From: Promethearchaeota archaeon
GTDB taxonomy: Archaea; Asgardarchaeota; Hermodarchaeia; Hermodarchaeales; Hermodarchaeaceae
Length of the DNA stretch: 64,000 nucleotides
Reading direction: 5' to 3'
Assembly: GCA_048938385.1 (NCBI GenBank)
Contig: JBHLMG010000001.1
Coordinates: 96,001 to 160,000 of the forward strand
The notes under the pieces are model-generated. The model saw only the letters and a program-made list of their open reading frames with translations, did not search any database and was not told where the DNA came from. A program made the translations under genes and the position numbers. Of the stretch, positions 20,195 through 63,278 are shown one piece after another (positions within the stretch are counted from its first letter, which is position 1; each line of letters begins with the position of its first letter).

Positions 20195-21037
20195 ATGGAA
20201 GGAACTCAGAGGGAAGAAACATTGCCTGACTACGAGCTTATTACAAACGAAAAAACTTGGATTCTCCAATCACCAACCCTCAACCAAGCACATACTTTAA
20301 TTACGGCTGCTCTCGCTCAAAAACGTCTAATTCAAATCATAGGGCAGTGCCATGTTGAGTATAAAGGGCGAGCGCGGTCTATCCTGACAAAAGGCGAACG
20401 CCTTGTTATTATTAAACGGGATGGAGCTATTCTGGTTCACCAAGAAAGTGGTGTTGAACCAGTCAACTGGCAACCACCTGGGGCTACAATAAAACTTACC
20501 CACAAAGCTAATCTTCTTCTCTTACAAGCTACTCGCTCGAAACCTAGAGAAAAAGTACATGTCGAATTCTCTTCTCTAGCGATGGTTTCTGCGAGCCTCA
20601 TTGACGACGCCGGTGAGTTCAGTATGTACCTAACTGAAGAAGAAATGCAGCGAATCCTGAGTGCTCACCCTGAACTTATCGAGCCTGGTCTGCGTACAAT
20701 TCGCCGAGAACGCCCTGTCACTCCTGGGTTCATCGATATCTTAGCACATGATGCAAACGGGCAGCTAGTCGTGATCGAACTAAAACGGCGCCGAGCGAAT
20801 AGTGAAGCAGTGTTACAGCTCCATAACTACCTTAAAAGCTTCCAAACAGGAAGTGCTACTCAAATTCGTGGCATTCTCGTCGCTCCCAGTTTAGCTAAAG
20901 GAACTCAGGCACTTCTCGAACAGCTTGGTCTCGAGTTTCGTAAGATCGAGCCACAGCAATGTGCTCAGTACTTACGGGAGTCTAAATCACAGAAACTTAC
21001 TGATTTTGTCAAAGACTCGTTAAAGAACCCAACCTAA
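20195..21037 (+). CDS. nucS: Mismatch-specific endonuclease NucS/EndoMS
   Basis: C.VEYKGRARS.L..GERLVIIK.DG..LVH....EPVNWQPPG, GFIDIL..D..G.LVVIELKR, AVLQL..Y, RGILVAP. Confidence 0.95.
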   Translation: MEGTQREETLPDYELITNEKTWILQSPTLNQAHTLITAALAQKRLIQIIGQCHVEYKGRARSILTKGERLVIIKRDGAILVHQESGVEPVNWQPPGATIKLTHKANLLLLQATRSKPREKVHVEFSSLAMVSASLIDDAGEFSMYLTEEEMQRILSAHPELIEPGLRTIRRERPVTPGFIDILAHDANGQLVVIELKRRRANSEAVLQLHNYLKSFQTGSATQIRGILVAPSLAKGTQALLEQLGLEFRKIEPQQCAQYLRESKSQKLTDFVKDSLKNPT

Positions 21038-55574: not shown

Positions 55575-56783
55575 TTGGGCGAGAATATCATCGAAAAGGC
55601 GTTATTGGGCGCGTCGGTCTTCAAAAACGAAGAGACCCTTCATCCTGCCTTTATACCTCCTGAACTACCCAACCGTCAAGACCAGTTAGTTCGGTTAGGA
55701 CACGATTTCAAACCCTTACTGAATACAGAGGGAGCATACGCGGTTAATGTTGCAGTAGTCGGGAAGCCAGGAACCGGAAAAACTGTGTCTATTCGCTACT
55801 TTGGACGCGGATTAGAAAAAGCCGCTGCAAAACGCGGTATCAAAGTACGATTTGAATACTACGACTGCTTCATGTTCCGAACAAAAAGTGCAATTTTAAG
55901 AGATCTACTCACTGAACGCTTCAAAGTTACTAGTCGTGGATTCTCGGATGAAGAAATCACAACTATGATCCACCGGCGTCTATCTCGAGAAAACATCCGA
56001 CTTGTACTATGCCTCGATGAAGCCTATATTTTGGGGCAAGATCTCCTCAGCATCATTCACGCAAGCGAAGTAGCAAAACATGGTCAAGCGTACATTTCTA
56101 CGCTGATCGCTTGCCGTGTCGTCGATTGGCAAAACACGCTGAGTTTTCCTCTTTCAGGTCGTTTGCATGACCGCGTCGATATGCCTTCCTACACAGAAGA
56201 GGAACTTTTCGAAATCATGAAGTACCGTTCAGATCTTGCCTTCCACAAGGGCGTCGTCACGGACGAAATCCTGAAAATGGTGTCAAGCATTTCGGCTTCC
56301 ACACAAAATGCCAGGCACGGCATTGAAATGTTATATCTGGCTGGAAAAGCCGCAGACAGGACCGGTATTCGCCCCCTGGTCCCTGATTTGATACGAAGAG
56401 CAAAACAAGAAGTCTATTCTGAACTACGCTCAGATGTGCTCTATGGGCTACGAGATCAAGAAATCCTTGTTCTCGCCGCCATCTCCCGGAAACTTAAGCT
56501 GGAGAAATCCAGTTCAACTACTATTGCCAAGGTCTATGAGAACTACCAATTAATCTGTGAAGAATTAGGTGTGAAAAAGCAAGCCCTACCCACTTTTCGA
56601 AAGACAATCGATGCCTTAGTGTCACTCGGTATTCTCGGCAAAGTCGTTGAATCAATAAGCGACGGACGGCGCGGCCGGCGTGCACGCCTAACCCTGATGG
56701 ACATCCCGGTAGAAGTCTTTGATGAAAGAGTGAATGAAATATTACAGCGTCGTCGCTCAAAAGAAGAAGGCTACGATTTTTGA
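55575..56783 (+). CDS. cdc6: Orc1/Cdc6 replication initiator
   Basis: VFKNEETLHP.FIP..LPNR, GKPGTGKT, LCLDE, Y..EEL..I...R, C-terminal wHTH with GRRGR wing. Confidence 0.93.
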   Translation: MGENIIEKALLGASVFKNEETLHPAFIPPELPNRQDQLVRLGHDFKPLLNTEGAYAVNVAVVGKPGTGKTVSIRYFGRGLEKAAAKRGIKVRFEYYDCFMFRTKSAILRDLLTERFKVTSRGFSDEEITTMIHRRLSRENIRLVLCLDEAYILGQDLLSIIHASEVAKHGQAYISTLIACRVVDWQNTLSFPLSGRLHDRVDMPSYTEEELFEIMKYRSDLAFHKGVVTDEILKMVSSISASTQNARHGIEMLYLAGKAADRTGIRPLVPDLIRRAKQEVYSELRSDVLYGLRDQEILVLAAISRKLKLEKSSSTTIAKVYENYQLICEELGVKKQALPTFRKTIDALVSLGILGKVVESISDGRRGRRARLTLMDIPVEVFDERVNEILQRRRSKEEGYDF

Positions 56784-56804
56784 AAAAACGCAGGAGTTTG
56801 AAAA

Positions 56805-57362
56805 ATGGCAACCCAAAGTCTGAAAGAAGCGTTACGATTCCACTACAACAACTCATCGGTGACCGTTATCGCCCTAAAAGCCATTGACGAATTCACCATC
56901 CACGATACTAAATACGGCCCTATCGAAAAGGGGCGGGAATTTACAATTCCTCAGTGGGCGGCACATGAGTTACTTACAGCCAATCTGGTTCAACTCAAAG
57001 ACCCGTACATCAAAGTACCCCTACTTCAAAAAACACTCTGGCAGGAAACCGAGGATACTGCCCTTCAATCACTGACCCCTGATTTTTATCACCGCGTAAG
57101 AAGTTCAATTGAACAACTGGGGCAGTTGAACCAAAAGGAACCCAACGAAGTTCGGTTAGCAGCACAAACACGAATGGAGCAACTTTTCCGTGACTTAATA
57201 GCCAACCGGCTCCTTAAGCTTATGAAGATATCACTACGTGAAGAACGCCTACGCGAAACCAAGAAGAAAATGACCGGTGAGGAAAAGTGGCTCTTCGATC
57301 GGTTAGTCAACCTGTTACGAAATTGGCAAACGCAAGTGTTGGAGATTGAAGAAGGTGGCTGA
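56805..57362 (+). CDS. GINS subunit (Gins23/Psf2-Psf3-like)
   Basis: N-terminal B domain (IP.W.A..L), L..L..DFY, R..KL....., MT.EEK; directly upstream of mcm. Confidence 0.8.
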   Translation: MATQSLKEALRFHYNNSSVTVIALKAIDEFTIHDTKYGPIEKGREFTIPQWAAHELLTANLVQLKDPYIKVPLLQKTLWQETEDTALQSLTPDFYHRVRSSIEQLGQLNQKEPNEVRLAAQTRMEQLFRDLIANRLLKLMKISLREERLRETKKKMTGEEKWLFDRLVNLLRNWQTQVLEIEEGG

Positions 57363-60300
57363 AGAACTCGATTTAATCACACGATTTGAGGAATTCCTCA
57401 AAACCTACAAAACAGAAGAAGGAGACACCCCATACAACGACGCGATCGCGCGTTTAAGCCTCGAAGAAGCCATCTCCGTCCCCATCGACTTCAACCACCT
57501 CGTAACCTTTGACCCCGACCTCGCATCGGCCACACGAAGCCACCCCCAACAGGCCATCGACGCGGCATCAGCCGCCATTCGACGCATCCTTCAAGTCGTC
57601 GACCCCGATTACTACCAGACGATTGAAAAACCCCACGCCCGGTTCAAAGAAATTCCTGACCGCGTTTCAGTGCGTCTCATTCGCGCCGAACACATCGGAC
57701 AACTCATCATGGTCGACGCCCTCGTCACCCGGGTAAGCGACGTCAAACCCCTCCTGGTGGAAGGCGTCTTCCAATGCCGTCAATGCCAAGAAATCATCTA
57801 TGTCCAACAAACCCACCAATTCGTCCCTCCCCCCCTGTGCACCAACGAAGCCTGCCGCAGCAAAGGCCCCTTCGACCTCATCCCCGAACGATCGAAGTTC
57901 GTCGACTGGCAAAAAATCCGCCTCCAAGAAAAACCCGAAGAACTCCCCCCCGGCGCCCTCCCCCGCGCCCTCGACTGCATCCTCCAAGAAGACCTCGTCG
58001 ACATCGCCCGCCCCGGCGACCCCTGCCGCATCGTCGGCATCCTCCGCTCCACCCAAGACACCACCGCCCGCACCCGCCGCAAAGCCCCCACCTTCACCAG
58101 CTTCCTCGCCACCAACTACGTCGCCGTCTCCGAACGCGAAGCCGACCGCGTCGAAATCACCCCCAAAGAAGAAGAAACCATCCACGACCTCGCCCAAGAC
58201 CCCCTCATCCACCGCAAACTCGTCAACTCCATCGCCCCCTCCATCTACGGCCTCACCGACGAAAAAGAAGCCGTCAGCCTCCTCCTCTTCGGCGGCGTCC
58301 CCAAAACCCTCGCCGACGGCGTCAAAATCCGCGGCGACTCCAACATCCTCCTCGTAGGGGATCCCGGAACTGCTAAATCGCAGCTCCTTAAGTATGTAGC
58401 CCAGATTGCCCCCCGTGGACTGTACACCTCGGGAAAGGGTTCCACCGCCGCTGGCCTAACGGCGGCAGTGCTCCGAGATCCTGACACCGAGGGCTTCGCC
58501 CTCGAAGCGGGCGCCCTCGTCCTCGCCGATCGAGGAACAGCGTGTCTTCATCCAAGTTCTCGAGTCTTAGCGGACAACAAGCTATCTACAATAGAAGCGC
58601 TTTTTTCACAAACCACTCCAGCTACTGCAGTTTCTAATGGAGAAACAGTGATGGTTGGGCGGCTGGATGTTAAGGTTCCGTCGCTCACCAAGGATTTGGA
58701 TATGATCGAGTGTAAATCAACTTACATTCGGAAAAAGGCTGGTCCGAGTTCTTTACTTAAAATTTCAACTGAAACCGGGTTTTCTACGATAGTAACTCCT
58801 GACCACATGTTACTGGATGGAGCGTCATTAGAATGGAAGAAGGCTCAGGACTTTACAAAGGGGGAAAGTCTTGTTGCGCCCCTCAAGGTACCTGGATACA
58901 ATGACCCAGTCTATATCTTTGATTTAATCCCAGCTGACTGGATTGTTTGTCTTAATCAAGATGAGAAGACAGAATTACGGACTGAACTTTTCAAGCACTT
59001 CTCATCTCTCGCGAGCATAAATCGTTTCTTTGGACTACGAAGGGATGTCTTATCCGGACGATCGCAGATGAAAGTTGGGACCTTACACCGAATTCTCTCC
59101 CATCTTGGAATTTTCAACGAATGGAGGAAGCGAAAACTATCATTTGGACGAAAACAATCTGGTGAAAGACTCAAAGTCTCTGAAATCACGCCGGAATTAG
59201 CATACTTCCTCGGGTTTGTCTATGGAGATGGCTGGGACAGAATAAACAAGCGGCGGTCGTCTTTATCCGTTCACCAATCCTGGGTTAATCAGGAGCAAAT
59301 TCACCGTCTAATAGAATGCTATTCAACATTTTCCCGACGGTCACTTCGTAATTACCCTAGAACTTGTGAATCTGAAATTCGAGGGTCTGAAGTTCTCTGT
59401 CAATCAACTATCTTTACTGCGAATTCAAATCTTTTAGCACAAATTTACAATTACTTGTTAGCCAATGATCTATCAAATCTTCTTCAACTTCCTAATGACT
59501 CTTTAGCAGCTTTCATTGGAGGTATTATAGATTCTGATGGCTGCATCTCAATAAAATGTGATAGAAGAAGCGATTCTGATTACTACACTGCGCACATAGA
59601 TATTCAGTGTTCAAATAACTGGATTGAAAACCAATCTCTACTACTTTCGCTTAGACGATTTGATTGCTATGGTCGGCTCAAACCAGGTCGTGGAGTAATC
59701 CATGTCCAAATCACAGCAAGAGTTGATGTTGAAGCTCTACTGCACGCAATTAAGCCTTACAGTGTAAAAATAAAATTGCTTCCTAAATCTATTCGCACTA
59801 TTTCCAGTCTAAGTGATAGACTCCCGAGTAAGCCAATTGCTCAACTCGCTGAGCAAATCTCAACGATTAATACTGCCATGTTGGTTGAGAAAGGACTTTG
59901 GAGTACCATTTACAGTTACAAACATGAACGCTACGCGCCCAGCAGAGGGCAAGTAAAGAAAATCCAAACAATGCTAGACGACCATCTTTCCCCTGCTCAA
60001 CATGAACTAATCGACAACCTCCTGAAACGCGATTACTTCTTAGATCCTATTTCTTCTATAGAAGAAATCCCATATGATGGACCCGTTTACGACCTTCATG
60101 TTCCACAAACACACAACTTCACAGCAGACGGACTCATAACTCACAACTGCATTGATGAATTTGACAAGATGCGACCGCAAGATCGAACCGCGATACATGA
60201 GACGATGGAGCAGCATACTGTAAGTATAGCCAAGGCGGGGATTGTGGCGACGTTGAATGCGCGGACGGCGATTTTGGCCGCGGCGAATCCGAATTTGGGG

Positions 60301-61026
60301 CGGTATGTGCCGGAGCGGTCGTTTGCGGAGAATGTGAATTTGCCGGTGACGTTGTTGTCGCGGTTTGATTTGATTTTTACGTTGACGGATTTGCCGGAGT
60401 CGGAGCGGGATGAGCGGACGGCGGATCATATTCTGGCGTTGCATAAGCGGCGGGAGGCGTCGAAGGAGCCGCCGATTCCGGCGGAGTTGTTGCGGAAGTA
60501 CATTGCGTATGCGCGGCGGAACGTGTCGCCAGTGCTCACCGACGAGGCGTTGAATGTGGTGAAGGAGTTCTATCTGAGTATGCGGAAGTCGGGTGAGCGG
60601 GAGAATGCGCCAGTGCCGATTACGGCGCGGCAGCTTGAATCCATGATTCGGTTGGCGGAAGCGCATGCCAAGATGGCGTTGCGGGAAAAGGTCGTTGCAG
60701 AAGATGCGCAGGCGGCGGTTCGGCTGGTGCAGGTGTCGCTTCAGCAGGTGGGGTTTGACCGGGAAACGGGGCAGTATGATGTGGATAACATCATGATTGG
60801 GCGGTCGAAGTCTCAGCGTGAGCGGCTGCAGTCGATCCTCGTGTTGCTGCGGGATCTCGAAAAGGAGTCGCCGGGTGGGGTGTCGGTTGACAAACTCATC
60901 GAGCGCGCGGGGTTGGAAGGCATTTCTGAGCAGTTTGTACGCCAAGCTGTGAACCAACTGCGGGATAAGGATGGATTGATCTATGAACCTCGCCCGGGGC
61001 TGCTCAAGTACATTAAGGGTGCCTAG
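57346..61026 (+). CDS. mcm: Replicative helicase MCM, intein-containing (start TTG 57346 or GTG 57355)
   Basis: Zn finger CRQC..C...AC, IAPSIYG, GDPGTAKSQLL, AAGLTAAV, CIDEFDKM, SRFDL, ITARQLE. Confidence 0.97.
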   Translation: MKKVAEELDLITRFEEFLKTYKTEEGDTPYNDAIARLSLEEAISVPIDFNHLVTFDPDLASATRSHPQQAIDAASAAIRRILQVVDPDYYQTIEKPHARFKEIPDRVSVRLIRAEHIGQLIMVDALVTRVSDVKPLLVEGVFQCRQCQEIIYVQQTHQFVPPPLCTNEACRSKGPFDLIPERSKFVDWQKIRLQEKPEELPPGALPRALDCILQEDLVDIARPGDPCRIVGILRSTQDTTARTRRKAPTFTSFLATNYVAVSEREADRVEITPKEEETIHDLAQDPLIHRKLVNSIAPSIYGLTDEKEAVSLLLFGGVPKTLADGVKIRGDSNILLVGDPGTAKSQLLKYVAQIAPRGLYTSGKGSTAAGLTAAVLRDPDTEGFALEAGALVLADRGTACLHPSSRVLADNKLSTIEALFSQTTPATAVSNGETVMVGRLDVKVPSLTKDLDMIECKSTYIRKKAGPSSLLKISTETGFSTIVTPDHMLLDGASLEWKKAQDFTKGESLVAPLKVPGYNDPVYIFDLIPADWIVCLNQDEKTELRTELFKHFSSLASINRFFGLRRDVLSGRSQMKVGTLHRILSHLGIFNEWRKRKLSFGRKQSGERLKVSEITPELAYFLGFVYGDGWDRINKRRSSLSVHQSWVNQEQIHRLIECYSTFSRRSLRNYPRTCESEIRGSEVLCQSTIFTANSNLLAQIYNYLLANDLSNLLQLPNDSLAAFIGGIIDSDGCISIKCDRRSDSDYYTAHIDIQCSNNWIENQSLLLSLRRFDCYGRLKPGRGVIHVQITARVDVEALLHAIKPYSVKIKLLPKSIRTISSLSDRLPSKPIAQLAEQISTINTAMLVEKGLWSTIYSYKHERYAPSRGQVKKIQTMLDDHLSPAQHELIDNLLKRDYFLDPISSIEEIPYDGPVYDLHVPQTHNFTADGLITHNCIDEFDKMRPQDRTAIHETMEQHTVSIAKAGIVATLNARTAILAAANPNLGRYVPERSFAENVNLPVTLLSRFDLIFTLTDLPESERDERTADHILALHKRREASKEPPIPAELLRKYIAYARRNVSPVLTDEALNVVKEFYLSMRKSGERENAPVPITARQLESMIRLAEAHAKMALREKVVAEDAQAAVRLVQVSLQQVGFDRETGQYDVDNIMIGRSKSQRERLQSILVLLRDLEKESPGGVSVDKLIERAGLEGISEQFVRQAVNQLRDKDGLIYEPRPGLLKYIKGA
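58543..60147 (+). mobile_element. Intein with LAGLIDADG homing endonuclease (535 aa)
   Basis: Starts CLHP, block B VTPDH, LAYFLGFVYGDG and FIGGIIDSDG, block F VYDL.V..THNF.ADG, ends HN followed by +1 Cys; splits ADRGTA|CIDEFDKM. Confidence 0.96.
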
Positions 61027-61046
61027 CCTGTAGGTGGGATTGTCCG

Positions 61047-63278
61047 ATTAAACAGATTGCCAAACTACCCTTAGACCCCCGAATCAAGGACTATTTCTTA
61101 CACAAAGGCTTCTCGACGCTATACCCTCCCCAAGTCAAAGCCATCAAAGCCGGCGCCCTCGAGGGCGCGAACACCGTCTTGGCTATTCCCACCGCGTCGG
61201 GCAAAACGCTGATCGCTGAGTTCTGCATGCTCAAGTCTATACTTGAACAAGGTGGGAAGGCCCTCTATTTGACGCCCTTACGGGCCTTAGCGTCTGAGAA
61301 GTTTGAAGAATTCCAACCCTACGCTCAGCTTGGTGTAAATGTGGGAATCACCACCGGGGATTATGACACTGCGGATGAAAAGTATGGCGCTTATGATCTC
61401 CTTATCTGTACGAATGAACGCGCCGACTCCCTCCTGCGCCATCGCGCCAAATGGCTCTCCGACATTGCTATCGTTATCGCTGATGAAGTCCACCTCATCA
61501 ACGACCCAAGCCGCGGACCCACCCTCGAAGTGGTACTAGCCCGCCTTCGCCAAATTGCTCCACATGCCCAAATCCTCGCCTTAAGCGCCACCGTCAATAA
61601 CGCGCAAGAACTCGCCGATTGGCTCAAAGGCAAAGCCGTAATTAGCGATTGGCGTCCTGTGACTCTTCGTGAAGGTGTCTACCTCGAAGGAAAGGTCCTT
61701 TTCGGTGATGACAGCGAGGAAAACTACGCACCTGCTACTGCTTTTCCAATTGGCGACATCGTCCGTCGCGTGCTCAGACAAAAAGGACAGCTTCTTGCCT
61801 TTCTGAACACTCGTCGTTCCGCAGTTAGAACAGCGCAGAAACTAAGTTCAATCGTCGCACCACGCTTGAATCAATCCGAACAAAAGGAACTACAACGCCT
61901 CGCTGAGACGATCCTCCATTTAGGCGAAGTCACCCAGGTCACAGACACTCTTGCCCGACTCATCCGCGCCGGCGTAGCATTCCACCATGCTGGGCTCCGT
62001 TACGCCGAACGCAAACACATCGAAGACGCCTTCCGCAACAACCTCATCAAAGCCATCTGCGCCACACCGACCCTTTCGGCTGGCCTGAACCTTCCCGCCC
62101 GCGTCGTGGTCATTCAAGAATATCGGCGATTTGATCGAGTTGAAGGGTATCAACCGATTCCGGTGTTAGAATACAAGCAAATGGCCGGGCGGGCAGGACG
62201 ACCGAAATACGATAAGACGGGCACGGCGATTCTGCTGTCACGGAATGATGGGGAGCGCGACTTTTTGCTGGACTATTACATAATGGGAAGTCCGGAAAGC
62301 ATTATTTCCAAACTGGCGAGCGAATCAGCACTCCGTAGCCACGTCCTGTCCACCATTGCCATGCGGTACGCCTCGGATAAAGAAGGCATCATGGAGTTCA
62401 TTCGACAAACCTTCTTCGGGCATCAGCGCGATCCTGATGAAGTTGAATACATGATTGACCTCATCGTGAAATTTCTCAAAGACGAAAAACTCCTCGAACA
62501 ACGCGGGCGTCGCCTTGCGGCGACGAATTTTGGAAGACGCACTTCTCAACTGTACATCGATCCTAAATCCGCTGTCATTCTCCGTGATGGACTTGCTAAG
62601 GCTGCCAGCCATCAGGATCAAACATCCGATATTTCTTTCCTCCACCTTATCAGCCATACACCTGATATGACCTCACTCTATCTCCGACGGGGTGAGGATG
62701 AGCGCTTCCATGATTATGTTATCGAACACATCGACGAGTTTCTAACCCCTGTGCCCGATCCACGGTATCATCGGGATCGCTACGAGTTCTTTCTTGCAGA
62801 AGTGAAAACGGCGCTCTTAGCGAAGGCCTGGGTGGAAGAACTCCCCGAAGATCAACTCATTACCCAATTCAAAATTGGATCCGGTGATCTTTTACGACTC
62901 GTGGATACCCAAGCCTGGCTCCTTTACGCTTGCCGAGAAATTGCTCCTCTCTTTGGACACAAAGGTCTGGTTCCTGAGCTGGATGAACTCGAACTTCGCG
63001 TCCGATATGGAGTGAAACGGGAGCTAGCCGATCTGGTTGAACTTCAAGGCATCGGTCGAGTTCGAGCCCGGTTTCTCTTTCGCGCCGGCTTTATCTCGAA
63101 GCCGCGTATTCGTGAAGCTCCGATTTCAGAACTTGCATCGGTACCTGCAATCGGATTACAGATCGCTAAATCAATCAAGCAGCAATGTGGCGGTATCATT
63201 GACTCATCAGAAGAAGAACAAGCGTTAAAGGGAACACGCCGGTCTTCTACACGACACACTCAGCTCACTTTAGATTAA
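61047..63278 (+). CDS. hel308: Hel308 (Ski2-like) DNA helicase (probable ATT start)
   Basis: Q motif LYPPQ lies upstream of the ORF-track start; PTASGKT, DEVH, LSAT, AFHHAGL, TPTLSAGLNLP, QMAGRAGRP, C-terminal HhH. Confidence 0.95.
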   Translation: MKQIAKLPLDPRIKDYFLHKGFSTLYPPQVKAIKAGALEGANTVLAIPTASGKTLIAEFCMLKSILEQGGKALYLTPLRALASEKFEEFQPYAQLGVNVGITTGDYDTADEKYGAYDLLICTNERADSLLRHRAKWLSDIAIVIADEVHLINDPSRGPTLEVVLARLRQIAPHAQILALSATVNNAQELADWLKGKAVISDWRPVTLREGVYLEGKVLFGDDSEENYAPATAFPIGDIVRRVLRQKGQLLAFLNTRRSAVRTAQKLSSIVAPRLNQSEQKELQRLAETILHLGEVTQVTDTLARLIRAGVAFHHAGLRYAERKHIEDAFRNNLIKAICATPTLSAGLNLPARVVVIQEYRRFDRVEGYQPIPVLEYKQMAGRAGRPKYDKTGTAILLSRNDGERDFLLDYYIMGSPESIISKLASESALRSHVLSTIAMRYASDKEGIMEFIRQTFFGHQRDPDEVEYMIDLIVKFLKDEKLLEQRGRRLAATNFGRRTSQLYIDPKSAVILRDGLAKAASHQDQTSDISFLHLISHTPDMTSLYLRRGEDERFHDYVIEHIDEFLTPVPDPRYHRDRYEFFLAEVKTALLAKAWVEELPEDQLITQFKIGSGDLLRLVDTQAWLLYACREIAPLFGHKGLVPELDELELRVRYGVKRELADLVELQGIGRVRARFLFRAGFISKPRIREAPISELASVPAIGLQIAKSIKQQCGGIIDSSEEEQALKGTRRSSTRHTQLTLD

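Follow-up and report, generated by a model that had tools for sequence, protein, structure and literature searches.

Strand-polarised codon skew flanking the MCM intein sites of an Asgard archaeon and its association with homing sites

The MCM gene and its flanks

The MCM replicative helicase gene of a Promethearchaeota archaeon carries an intein, and on each side of it the third codon positions are almost entirely one-sided, in opposite directions. The gene lies in the window analysed here, a stretch of 64,000 nucleotides (nt) at G000:C23:96001-160000, where G000 is the studied assembly (2.48 Mb in 51 contigs, 45% GC), whose gene content includes actin and Arf/Ras-type small GTPases. Positions without a contig label are those of the window. 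The Asgard genomes with which it was compared carry G0xx labels, and comprise 14 congeners, three genomes of a sister genus, and members of other families, including the complete genome G029, from another family, and G035, a genome of 35% GC that is 84% complete. These genomes are related, and are therefore not independent samples. The features of the gene are as follows, a slash within a motif marking an insertion or switch point.

57346-61026, + strand: MCM replicative helicase open reading frame (ORF), 1226 codons with one in-frame intein (Pfam MCM_N, MCM_OB, MCM P-loop, MCM_lid and Intein_splicing)
57400-57909, + strand: outer left flank, 70-95% of third positions C or A, fading toward the gene start (20-codon bins)
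57910-58356, + strand: saturated left flank, 149 codons in a row ending in C (A for Lys, Glu and Gln)
58354-58545, + strand: N-extein part of the core, 192 nt, unskewed third positions (A.20, C.38, G.22, T.20)
58375-58380, + strand: empty Walker-A intein site GDPGTAK/S, the left skew ending about 8 codons upstream
58546-60147, + strand: intein, 534 codons from Cys1 to His-Asn, followed by Cys+1 (GC 0.42, no skew)
60148-60231, + strand: C-extein part of the core, from Walker B CIDEFDKM to TVSIAK, 84 nt, no skew
60216/60217, + strand: third intein site MEQH/TVSIAKAG, empty in G000, inside the C-extein part of the core
60232-60498, + strand: saturated right flank, 88 of 89 codons ending in G or T, with G wherever the code permits and T elsewhere
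60499-60920, + strand: outer right flank, 75-90% of third positions G or T, fading

The insertion is in frame, occupying 534 codons between ADRGTA and CIDEFDKM that have no counterpart in some orthologues; G006, G014 and G002 have an intein-free MCM of 693-703 amino acids. It matches PF14890 at 57.7 bits (cut-off 35.8), and its ends read C-LHPSS ... ITHN-C, with Cys1, a C-terminal His-Asn and a Cys nucleophile at +1. Judged by this splicing domain and these terminal residues, the insert is an intein. Two LAGLIDADG-like dodecapeptides can be picked out by eye in its translation; Pfam LAGLIDADG_3 gave no match at E<=1e-4.

The left flank is saturated to the point that all 148 codons of 57910-58353 use a single codon per amino acid, Ser excepted. 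The set consists of GCC, TGC, GAC, GAA, TTC, GGC, CAC, ATC, AAA, CTC, AAC, CCC, CAA, CGC, ACC, GTC and TAC, with Ser encoded by five TCC and two AGC codons, and the third positions are 0.83 C and 0.17 A, with neither G nor T. At the genome-wide share of C and A in third positions, the chance of such a run is 0.52^148, or about 1e-42; among all complete long ORFs of G000, the next longest run is 39 codons and the median 8. In the right flank, the 88 biased codons of 60232-60498 (third positions G 0.76, T 0.22) are interrupted by one GCC, Leu is encoded by TTG 12 times and by CTG once, and the longest run of codons ending in G or T is 73 (60280-60498). GC content at third positions is 0.83 and 0.77 in the two flanks, compared with about 0.43 genome-wide. 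The left bias extends outward to about 57400, and the right bias to about 60890-60920, and both have abrupt inner edges, at 58353/58354 (LLV/GDPGTAK) and about 60232 (SIAK/AG), beyond which no part of the core is skewed. An earlier note on this DNA had described this pattern: its 148 left-flank codons proved exact, the unbroken run reaching 149 at 58356; its 88 of 89 right-flank codons, with TTG for Leu, were likewise exact; the outward fading and inward stop were borne out by 20-codon bins; and its normal core of the intein plus about 190 and 85 nt measures 192 and 84 nt of extein, unskewed.

The skew is a pressure on DNA, rather than selection on codons. Firstly, its polarity tracks the DNA strand, not the direction of genes. 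Secondly, it extends beyond silent positions: in the left region of MCM, changes specific to G000 at the first and second codon positions ran 12 times from keto to amino bases, against two in reverse (p=0.013), and weakly constrained ORFs within similarly skewed patches are rich in His, Pro, Thr, Leu and Gln, or in Val and Gly. Thirdly, the TCC and AGC codons of Ser do not interconvert through silent single steps. The retention of both families therefore argues against back-translation, and for stepwise substitution. Translational codon optimisation can be rejected, as opposite codon sets occur within one gene, non-coding DNA and replacement sites are affected, and polarity is strand-based. 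A synthetic or back-translated origin is excluded by the two Ser families, and by the graded pattern in relatives. A metagene of 1753 long ORFs showed no trend at ordinary gene starts or ends, which speaks against both codon optimisation and skew linked to the transcription of ordinary genes.

Nor is the MCM skew an artefact, because the same pattern occurs in independent assemblies of the 14 congeners. All of these, and the sister genus, are enriched in C/A upstream of GDPGTAKS, to degrees ranging from 0.50 to 1.00, and a skew in the same place occurs in two other Asgard families. The earlier note's alternative of an assembly consensus artefact falls on the same observation.

Across the genus, MCM has three intein sites. 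The first, after the Walker-A lysine, is occupied in the congeners G012, G009, G004, G003, G008 and G001, as well as in G017, G018 and G029; the second, before Walker B, in G000, G011 and G009; and the third, between MEQH and TVSIAKAG, in G005, G012 and G009. In all congeners, the core begins about 8 codons ahead of the Walker-A site and ends about 6 codons beyond the MEQH/T site. These positions are unaffected by which of the sites (a, b and c) are filled, whether one, several or none, and hold even in the intein-free G014. The unbiased core is thus bounded by the outermost of the three sites. G009 has inteins at all three sites. There the C/A skew reaches into the 3' half of the intein at the a site, which lies to the left of the b site, and the G/T skew into the 5' part of the one at the c site, which lies to the right of the b site. 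Hence the inteins are skewed according to their location relative to the b site, and it is position that decides, not the identity of the sequence as extein.

The earlier note's proposal that the normal core is the latest co-conversion tract finds no support. The inteins of G000 and G011, at the same site, share 69% amino-acid identity. Synonymous identity between the two genes is 0.48-0.56 in the core, and 0.38-0.48 in the fading outer parts, while the saturated flanks reach a codon identity of 0.85-0.89 by convergence. As the core is close to the level of the outer parts, and the intein is at 69%, the core is not a recent import; its edges, moreover, fall at the outermost homing sites whichever of them is occupied. 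More plausibly, it is the stretch enclosed by the outermost sites, in which opposing pressures overlap or both strands are equally likely to be copied. When silent changes in MCM were polarised, T>C and A>C predominated among the gains on some branches, and in the intein-free lineages G002 and G014 the bias decays by C>T and C>A. The left flank has a C/A share of 0.71-1.00 in 13 intein-bearing genes, compared with 0.43-0.88 in 12 intein-free genes, counts that come from related genomes and so are not independent.

Homing sites in other genes and lineages

Downstream of MCM, a miniature footprint of the same kind lies in a second helicase gene. The two genes belong to a replication gene cluster at 55575-63278, comprising Orc1/Cdc6, a 185-amino-acid ORF, MCM and a Hel308-type helicase, and the window also holds a gene for a mismatch endonuclease.

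55575-56783, + strand: Orc1/Cdc6 gene, upstream of MCM (Pfam Cdc6_lid, Cdc6_C, AAA_22)
56805-57362: 185-amino-acid ORF without a Pfam match, between Orc1/Cdc6 and MCM
61179-63278: Hel308-type helicase gene, downstream of MCM
61938-62078, + strand: miniature footprint in Hel308, a C/A run up to ICATPTL/SAG, the site being empty in G000
20636-20983, + strand (G000:C23:116636-116983): NucS/EndoMS mismatch endonuclease gene (PF01939, E=2e-32)

In G029, an intein occupies Hel308 at the exact TPTL/S junction where the C/A run of G000 ends. The DNA polymerase gene PolB of G000 (C1:61118-63802) is similarly empty, yet near codon 620, just short of motif B, its third positions change sharply from C/A to G/T; the intein sites of PolB in the genus lie at about 541, 612-630 and 648, and the gene is intein-free in G000, G014, G007 and the sister genus.

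RadA flips at QPD/VFF in all congeners examined, without an intein, and when an intein at this switch point was sought across 250 Asgard genomes, the matches listed were uninterrupted. In G000, the gene is split over two contig ends, C33:100283-102946 (locus L109) joining C2:1-812. Behind the real tail lies a 219-amino-acid ORF, membrane or zinc-ribbon-like, followed by a worn copy of the RadA tail (the last 47 codons or so, 55% identity, with two TAG stops), and the detectable start of the duplicated tail is about 12 codons past the flip. The locus is a tail-duplication gene cassette, and the switch lies close to its junction.

G029 allowed the association to be measured at many insertions in one complete genome. 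The index was the A+C share of third positions in the 50 codons upstream minus that in the 50 codons downstream of each intein, with boundaries approximated from Pfam coordinates, and intein-free ORFs provided the null. The 14 inteins lie in RNR (two), AtpA, Hel308, UvrB, Ogg, PolD, an epimerase, MCM, NrdD, NifU, PolB, RpoA' and RpoB. At 12 of them the index was positive, and at 10 it exceeded the 95th percentile of the null, the mean being 0.31 compared with -0.01 +/- 0.11 (Wilcoxon p=0.002; Mann-Whitney p=9e-6).

The MCM flanks of the AT-rich G035 go to A (0.68 of third positions upstream) and T (0.70 downstream). Hence the primary split is between amino (A, C) and keto (G, T) bases, with the GC pressure of the genome picking within each class.

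The earlier note had suggested comparing skew switches with occupied and empty intein sites elsewhere. The association held at motif B of PolB, at TPTL/S of Hel308 and at 12 of the 14 inteins of G029, and its polarity is fixed, with the skew also switching near the RadA junction, decaying in two intein-free MCM lineages, and entering neighbouring inteins according to their position. The link between skew and homing sites therefore holds.

Skew patches across the genome

The phenomenon is wider than inteins. In G000, 64 of the 1753 long ORFs contain a skew patch, as do many intergenic sites. C/A patches on the sense strand number 51, mostly at the 3' ends of genes, while G/T patches number 16, mostly at 5' ends. 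Hence on the + strand a single polarity prevails, switches having C/A on their left and G/T on their right. Twenty further patch-bearing ORFs searched against Pfam had no common function, their products being FttA, a ClC channel, a helicase, hydrolases, TldD, CdhC, a hydrogenase small subunit, and many unknowns.

Switches can be closely spaced. Across C1:1-13500 the skew forms a saw-tooth, with sharp rises every 1-2.5 kb, each followed by decay: the + strand turns G/T-rich at about 1320, 3330, 5220, 7740, 8640, 10560, 11300 and 13020, and these edges are intergenic. No shared motif was seen at them by eye, and the part of a 16-mer repeat census that was completed returned just a few unrelated families. 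At G000:C7:1-2600 there is a switch of opposite sign, from G/T to C/A at about 1550, between divergent genes that both have C/A-rich sense strands; it may be where two neighbouring saw-tooth units meet.

A second complete unit, of C/A flank, core and G/T flank, lies outside the window, at a contig end (G000:C23:331375-333043; locus L001 5100-7044). On its left is an Arf/Ras-like small GTPase gene (+ strand), which is C/A-saturated, the non-coding DNA upstream of it being 67% A+C. The core is 470 nt of normal, AT-rich composition (GC 0.39). On its right is a free-standing LAGLIDADG-like gene on the - strand, across which the + strand is 73% G+T, and the two genes converge on the core. The endonuclease assignment is weak, PF14528 scoring 21 bits, below the cut-off. 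Elsewhere on this contig and also outside the window, a free-standing LAGLIDADG_3 ORF of 226 amino acids (C23:185834-186007; E=4e-10) is some 1 kb from a C/A patch that lies within the gene at C23:186797-187318.

Recombinational repair as a probable cause, and its alternatives

On balance, the MCM flanks probably record a directional pressure on substitutions that is polarised by strand and centred on the cluster of homing sites, most likely exerted by recurrent recombinational repair, or by the insertion and loss of mobile elements. Breaks, repair synthesis and a responsible enzyme are what this explanation would add to the observed pattern, its polarity, its action on DNA and its association with homing sites. 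On each side, the strand running 5' to 3' away from the sites is G/T-rich and its complement, with the 3' end toward the sites, A/C-rich, an effect that decays over about 0.5-1 kb. In every model of homologous recombination, it is this G/T-rich strand that is newly made in the flank, whether by fill-in after 5' resection or by extension of an invading 3' end. It is this correspondence that makes recurrent repair, or element insertion and loss, the most likely source. Purifying selection would hold the protein, such that silent sites saturate. Between the outermost sites, opposite pressures would overlap, or both strands would be copied, leaving no net skew in the core, the intein included, and the choice of C or A, or of G or T, would be set by the GC pressure of the genome.

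Three versions of the underlying step can be envisaged. Repair synthesis could generate G.T-type mispairs, accumulating A>G, C>T and changes to G; such mispairs are far commoner than A.C (PMC6159521). Alternatively, the nascent single strand could be damaged behind a migrating D-loop. Finally, heteroduplex correction by EndoMS/NucS could remove G and T, and not A and C, from the invading strand. EndoMS/NucS cuts G/T, G/G and T/T mismatches, and hardly cuts A/C, C/C or A/A (PMC4838380), hence its divide between cut and uncut mismatches is the keto/amino divide of the skew, and the gene is present in the window. NucS (PF01939) occurs in all 14 congeners, in all of family f1 except G017, and in G029; however, its distribution does not track skew among the genomes examined, and a role for it is a hypothesis.

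The nearest known parallel is the footprint of human meiotic hot spots, where C and A are lost from the resected 3' single strand (Hinch et al. 2023, PMC7615360). There too the asymmetry flips at the site, the centre is symmetric and the flanks are of resection scale (here within 0.5-2 kb), and the footprint is attributed to strand-specific steps of recombinational repair, as proposed here. The differences are that the strand with its 3' end toward the site is A/C-rich here, reversing the polarity; that the human signal is a small excess of de novo mutations, rather than a saturated equilibrium of silent sites; and that the sites are archaeal mobile-element homing sites, rather than those of PRDM9 and SPO11. 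This reversed polarity rules out a simple model of damage to the 3' tail.

Clustered MCM intein sites are themselves familiar from Haloarchaea, which have sites a-d, with MCM-a after the Walker A lysine (PMC10643990). The resemblance extends to close sites in the ATPase core, polymorphic occupancy and, going by the dodecapeptides, probably the LAGLIDADG type; unlike in intein homing with co-conversion, the core here is not demonstrably a recent co-conversion tract. Full-text literature searches found no report of compositional or strand skew at intein or homing sites. What is new relative to known strand asymmetry in break repair is the reversed polarity, the saturation, the setting at Asgard homing sites and the visibility at empty sites, the biology of multiple MCM intein sites being already known. 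GC-biased gene conversion is strand-symmetric. It too shifts silent-site composition locally, with a peak beside sites of recombination initiation, but it would not yield complementary flanks of C and G, nor the A and T flanks of the AT-rich G035.

Several observations weigh against the repair explanation. Firstly, what the skew accompanies is insertion sites rather than demonstrated cutting, and no break, resection or repair event was seen. Secondly, an intein-occupied site is not cut by its endonuclease, and yet the flanks of G000 and G011 are still saturated, despite their site being occupied by inteins that have diverged to 69% identity. Events despite occupancy would need empty neighbouring sites, an endonuclease acting in trans during DNA exchange, cycles of loss and re-invasion, or some other process that depends on the intein. 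Thirdly, the effect is absent from MCM of G019, RNR of G039, and Ogg, NrdD, NifU and the epimerase of G029. Fourthly, for many patches of G000, at the 3' ends of genes or between genes, no mobile element was identified, and the excess of sharp upward over downward skew jumps across the genome is only about 2:1. Fifthly, the polarity is opposite to the single-stranded DNA damage signature of human hot spots (PMC7615360). Lastly, NucS is present in the unskewed G019, and was not found in the skewed G035, an assembly that is 84% complete. The earlier note's proposal of a strand-polarised footprint of repeated homing-endonuclease cutting and repair survives in part: the tie to homing sites and the fixed polarity stand, the core as the latest co-conversion tract does not, and endonuclease cutting with mutagenic repair is one candidate cause beside biased correction of heteroduplexes or a different process centred on the sites.

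Among the alternatives, outward transcription from AT-rich inserts is unlikely, although it accounts for much of what is seen. Spurious promoters in inteins, cassettes and intergenic cores would send untranslated transcripts out into the two flanks and generate R-loops, in which the displaced non-template strand, with its 5' to 3' direction outward, is deaminated (C>T, A>G) and becomes G-rich, stabilising more R-loops. The predicted polarity is that observed, the cores are AT-rich (GC 0.42 in the intein, 0.39 in the second unit), and a sharp inner edge with outward decay over 0.5-1 kb would be expected, as would a decay of the bias once an intein is lost. The preponderance of patches at gene 3' ends (51 sense C/A against 16 sense G/T) would fit antisense, untranslated RNAs. 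However, the left edge in MCM is fixed at Walker-A, despite the intein lying 64 codons further on, and the intervening 192 nt of GC-rich extein are unskewed. Furthermore, PolB, Hel308 and RadA switch without any AT-rich core, inteins are themselves skewed when beside another site, and ordinary genes have no skew at their 5' ends in the metagene.

Local starts of DNA synthesis, either origin-like or recombination-dependent, from which the outward nascent strand or the lagging-strand template would gain G and T, are very unlikely. The switch from C/A on the left to G/T on the right has the polarity of bacterial origins, the locus lies among Orc1/Cdc6, MCM and Hel308, and the mechanism overlaps with the break-induced synthesis of the repair explanation. 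Yet there are dozens of switches per 2.5 Mb, some only 1-2.5 kb apart and some within ORFs, saturated and, in unrelated genes, tied to intein sites. The effect does not persist beyond 1 kb, with no change at the scale of replichores, and the switch lies inside MCM, 1.6-4.6 kb from cdc6. The origin-like skew switch that the earlier note had listed is thus excluded at chromosome scale by its extent, number and position.

Selection on the DNA or RNA of the flanks is highly improbable. It might act by recoding sequence to lower homology between alleles or tails, to block re-invasion, or to tune the speed of translation near the intein. The protein is conserved while its silent sites are rewritten, and divergent recoding would stabilise the duplicated tail of RadA. 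Such selection does not readily extend to non-coding DNA and replacement sites, to opposite-strand genes with strand-based polarity, to empty sites with no intein to fold, or to opposite codon sets in the two flanks. Furthermore, convergence of independent lineages has brought G000 and G011 to a codon identity of 0.85-0.89, which raises homology. The best ungapped complementary segment between the flanks scored 12, compared with 11.5 +/- 1.1 in 30 codon-shuffled controls; there is thus no specific complementarity of the kind that the flank pairing raised in the earlier note would entail.

That the skew arose through assembly, polishing, back-translation or a chimeric consensus has a likelihood close to nil: a single codon per amino acid looks synthetic, and 12 of 21 patches are no more than 1.5 kb from the end of a contig, but assemblers are blind to reading frames, two Ser codon families are kept, the pattern is graded and phylogenetically structured across 14 congeners, three genomes of the sister genus and two other families, and the proximity to contig ends is accounted for by duplicated gene tails and insertion polymorphism.

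The footprint probably arises as a side effect, hitherto undescribed, of recombination or repair at the insertion sites of mobile elements. If so, homing and insertion sites leave a strong, polar and long-lived signature in host DNA, which exposes sites that are currently empty, as in PolB and Hel308. It would also be a natural record of one strand being treated differently in archaeal recombinational repair, a process hard to study in uncultured Asgard archaea, which are the closest relatives of eukaryotes. A more far-reaching proposal, which we advance only tentatively, is that some Asgard lineages, and this Hermod-like family most strongly, may have a repair or recombination pathway with an intrinsic bias of strand and base, rewriting up to about 1 kb on either side of every site of repeated breakage or insertion until a single codon is left for each amino acid. 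EndoMS-type cutting restricted to keto-containing heteroduplex mismatches, or a low-fidelity gap-filling polymerase, would be candidates. Were such a pathway to exist, it would drive changes of amino acid in core replication proteins, and skew would chart, from sequence alone, where homing occurs or once occurred and where recombination initiates in uncultured archaea.

There would also be consequences for the use of these genes as markers. If the explanation is correct, a local, non-adaptive pressure can override codon usage completely, and push replacements in essential genes, MCM, PolB and RadA among them. Phylogenies, estimates of synonymous divergence (dS) and codon-based predictions of expression would then be distorted for Asgard phylogenomic marker genes.

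The coincidence of patches with contig breaks matters for the assembly and binning of these genomes. The 12 patches near contig ends compare with an expectation of 6% (p=5e-10), and patch-bearing ends occur on C1, C2, C7, C11, C23, C31, C39, C45 and C46, with actin at the start of C15. Breaks cut actin, RadA and a NuoD-like hydrogenase subunit inside C/A-saturated sequence. On C31, the C/A saturation of a hydrogenase-like terminal gene continues right to the break, and a DPCxxCxxH pattern search for repeats of hydrogenase tails returned intact hydrogenase genes alone. Actin is found at contig ends in several congeners too.

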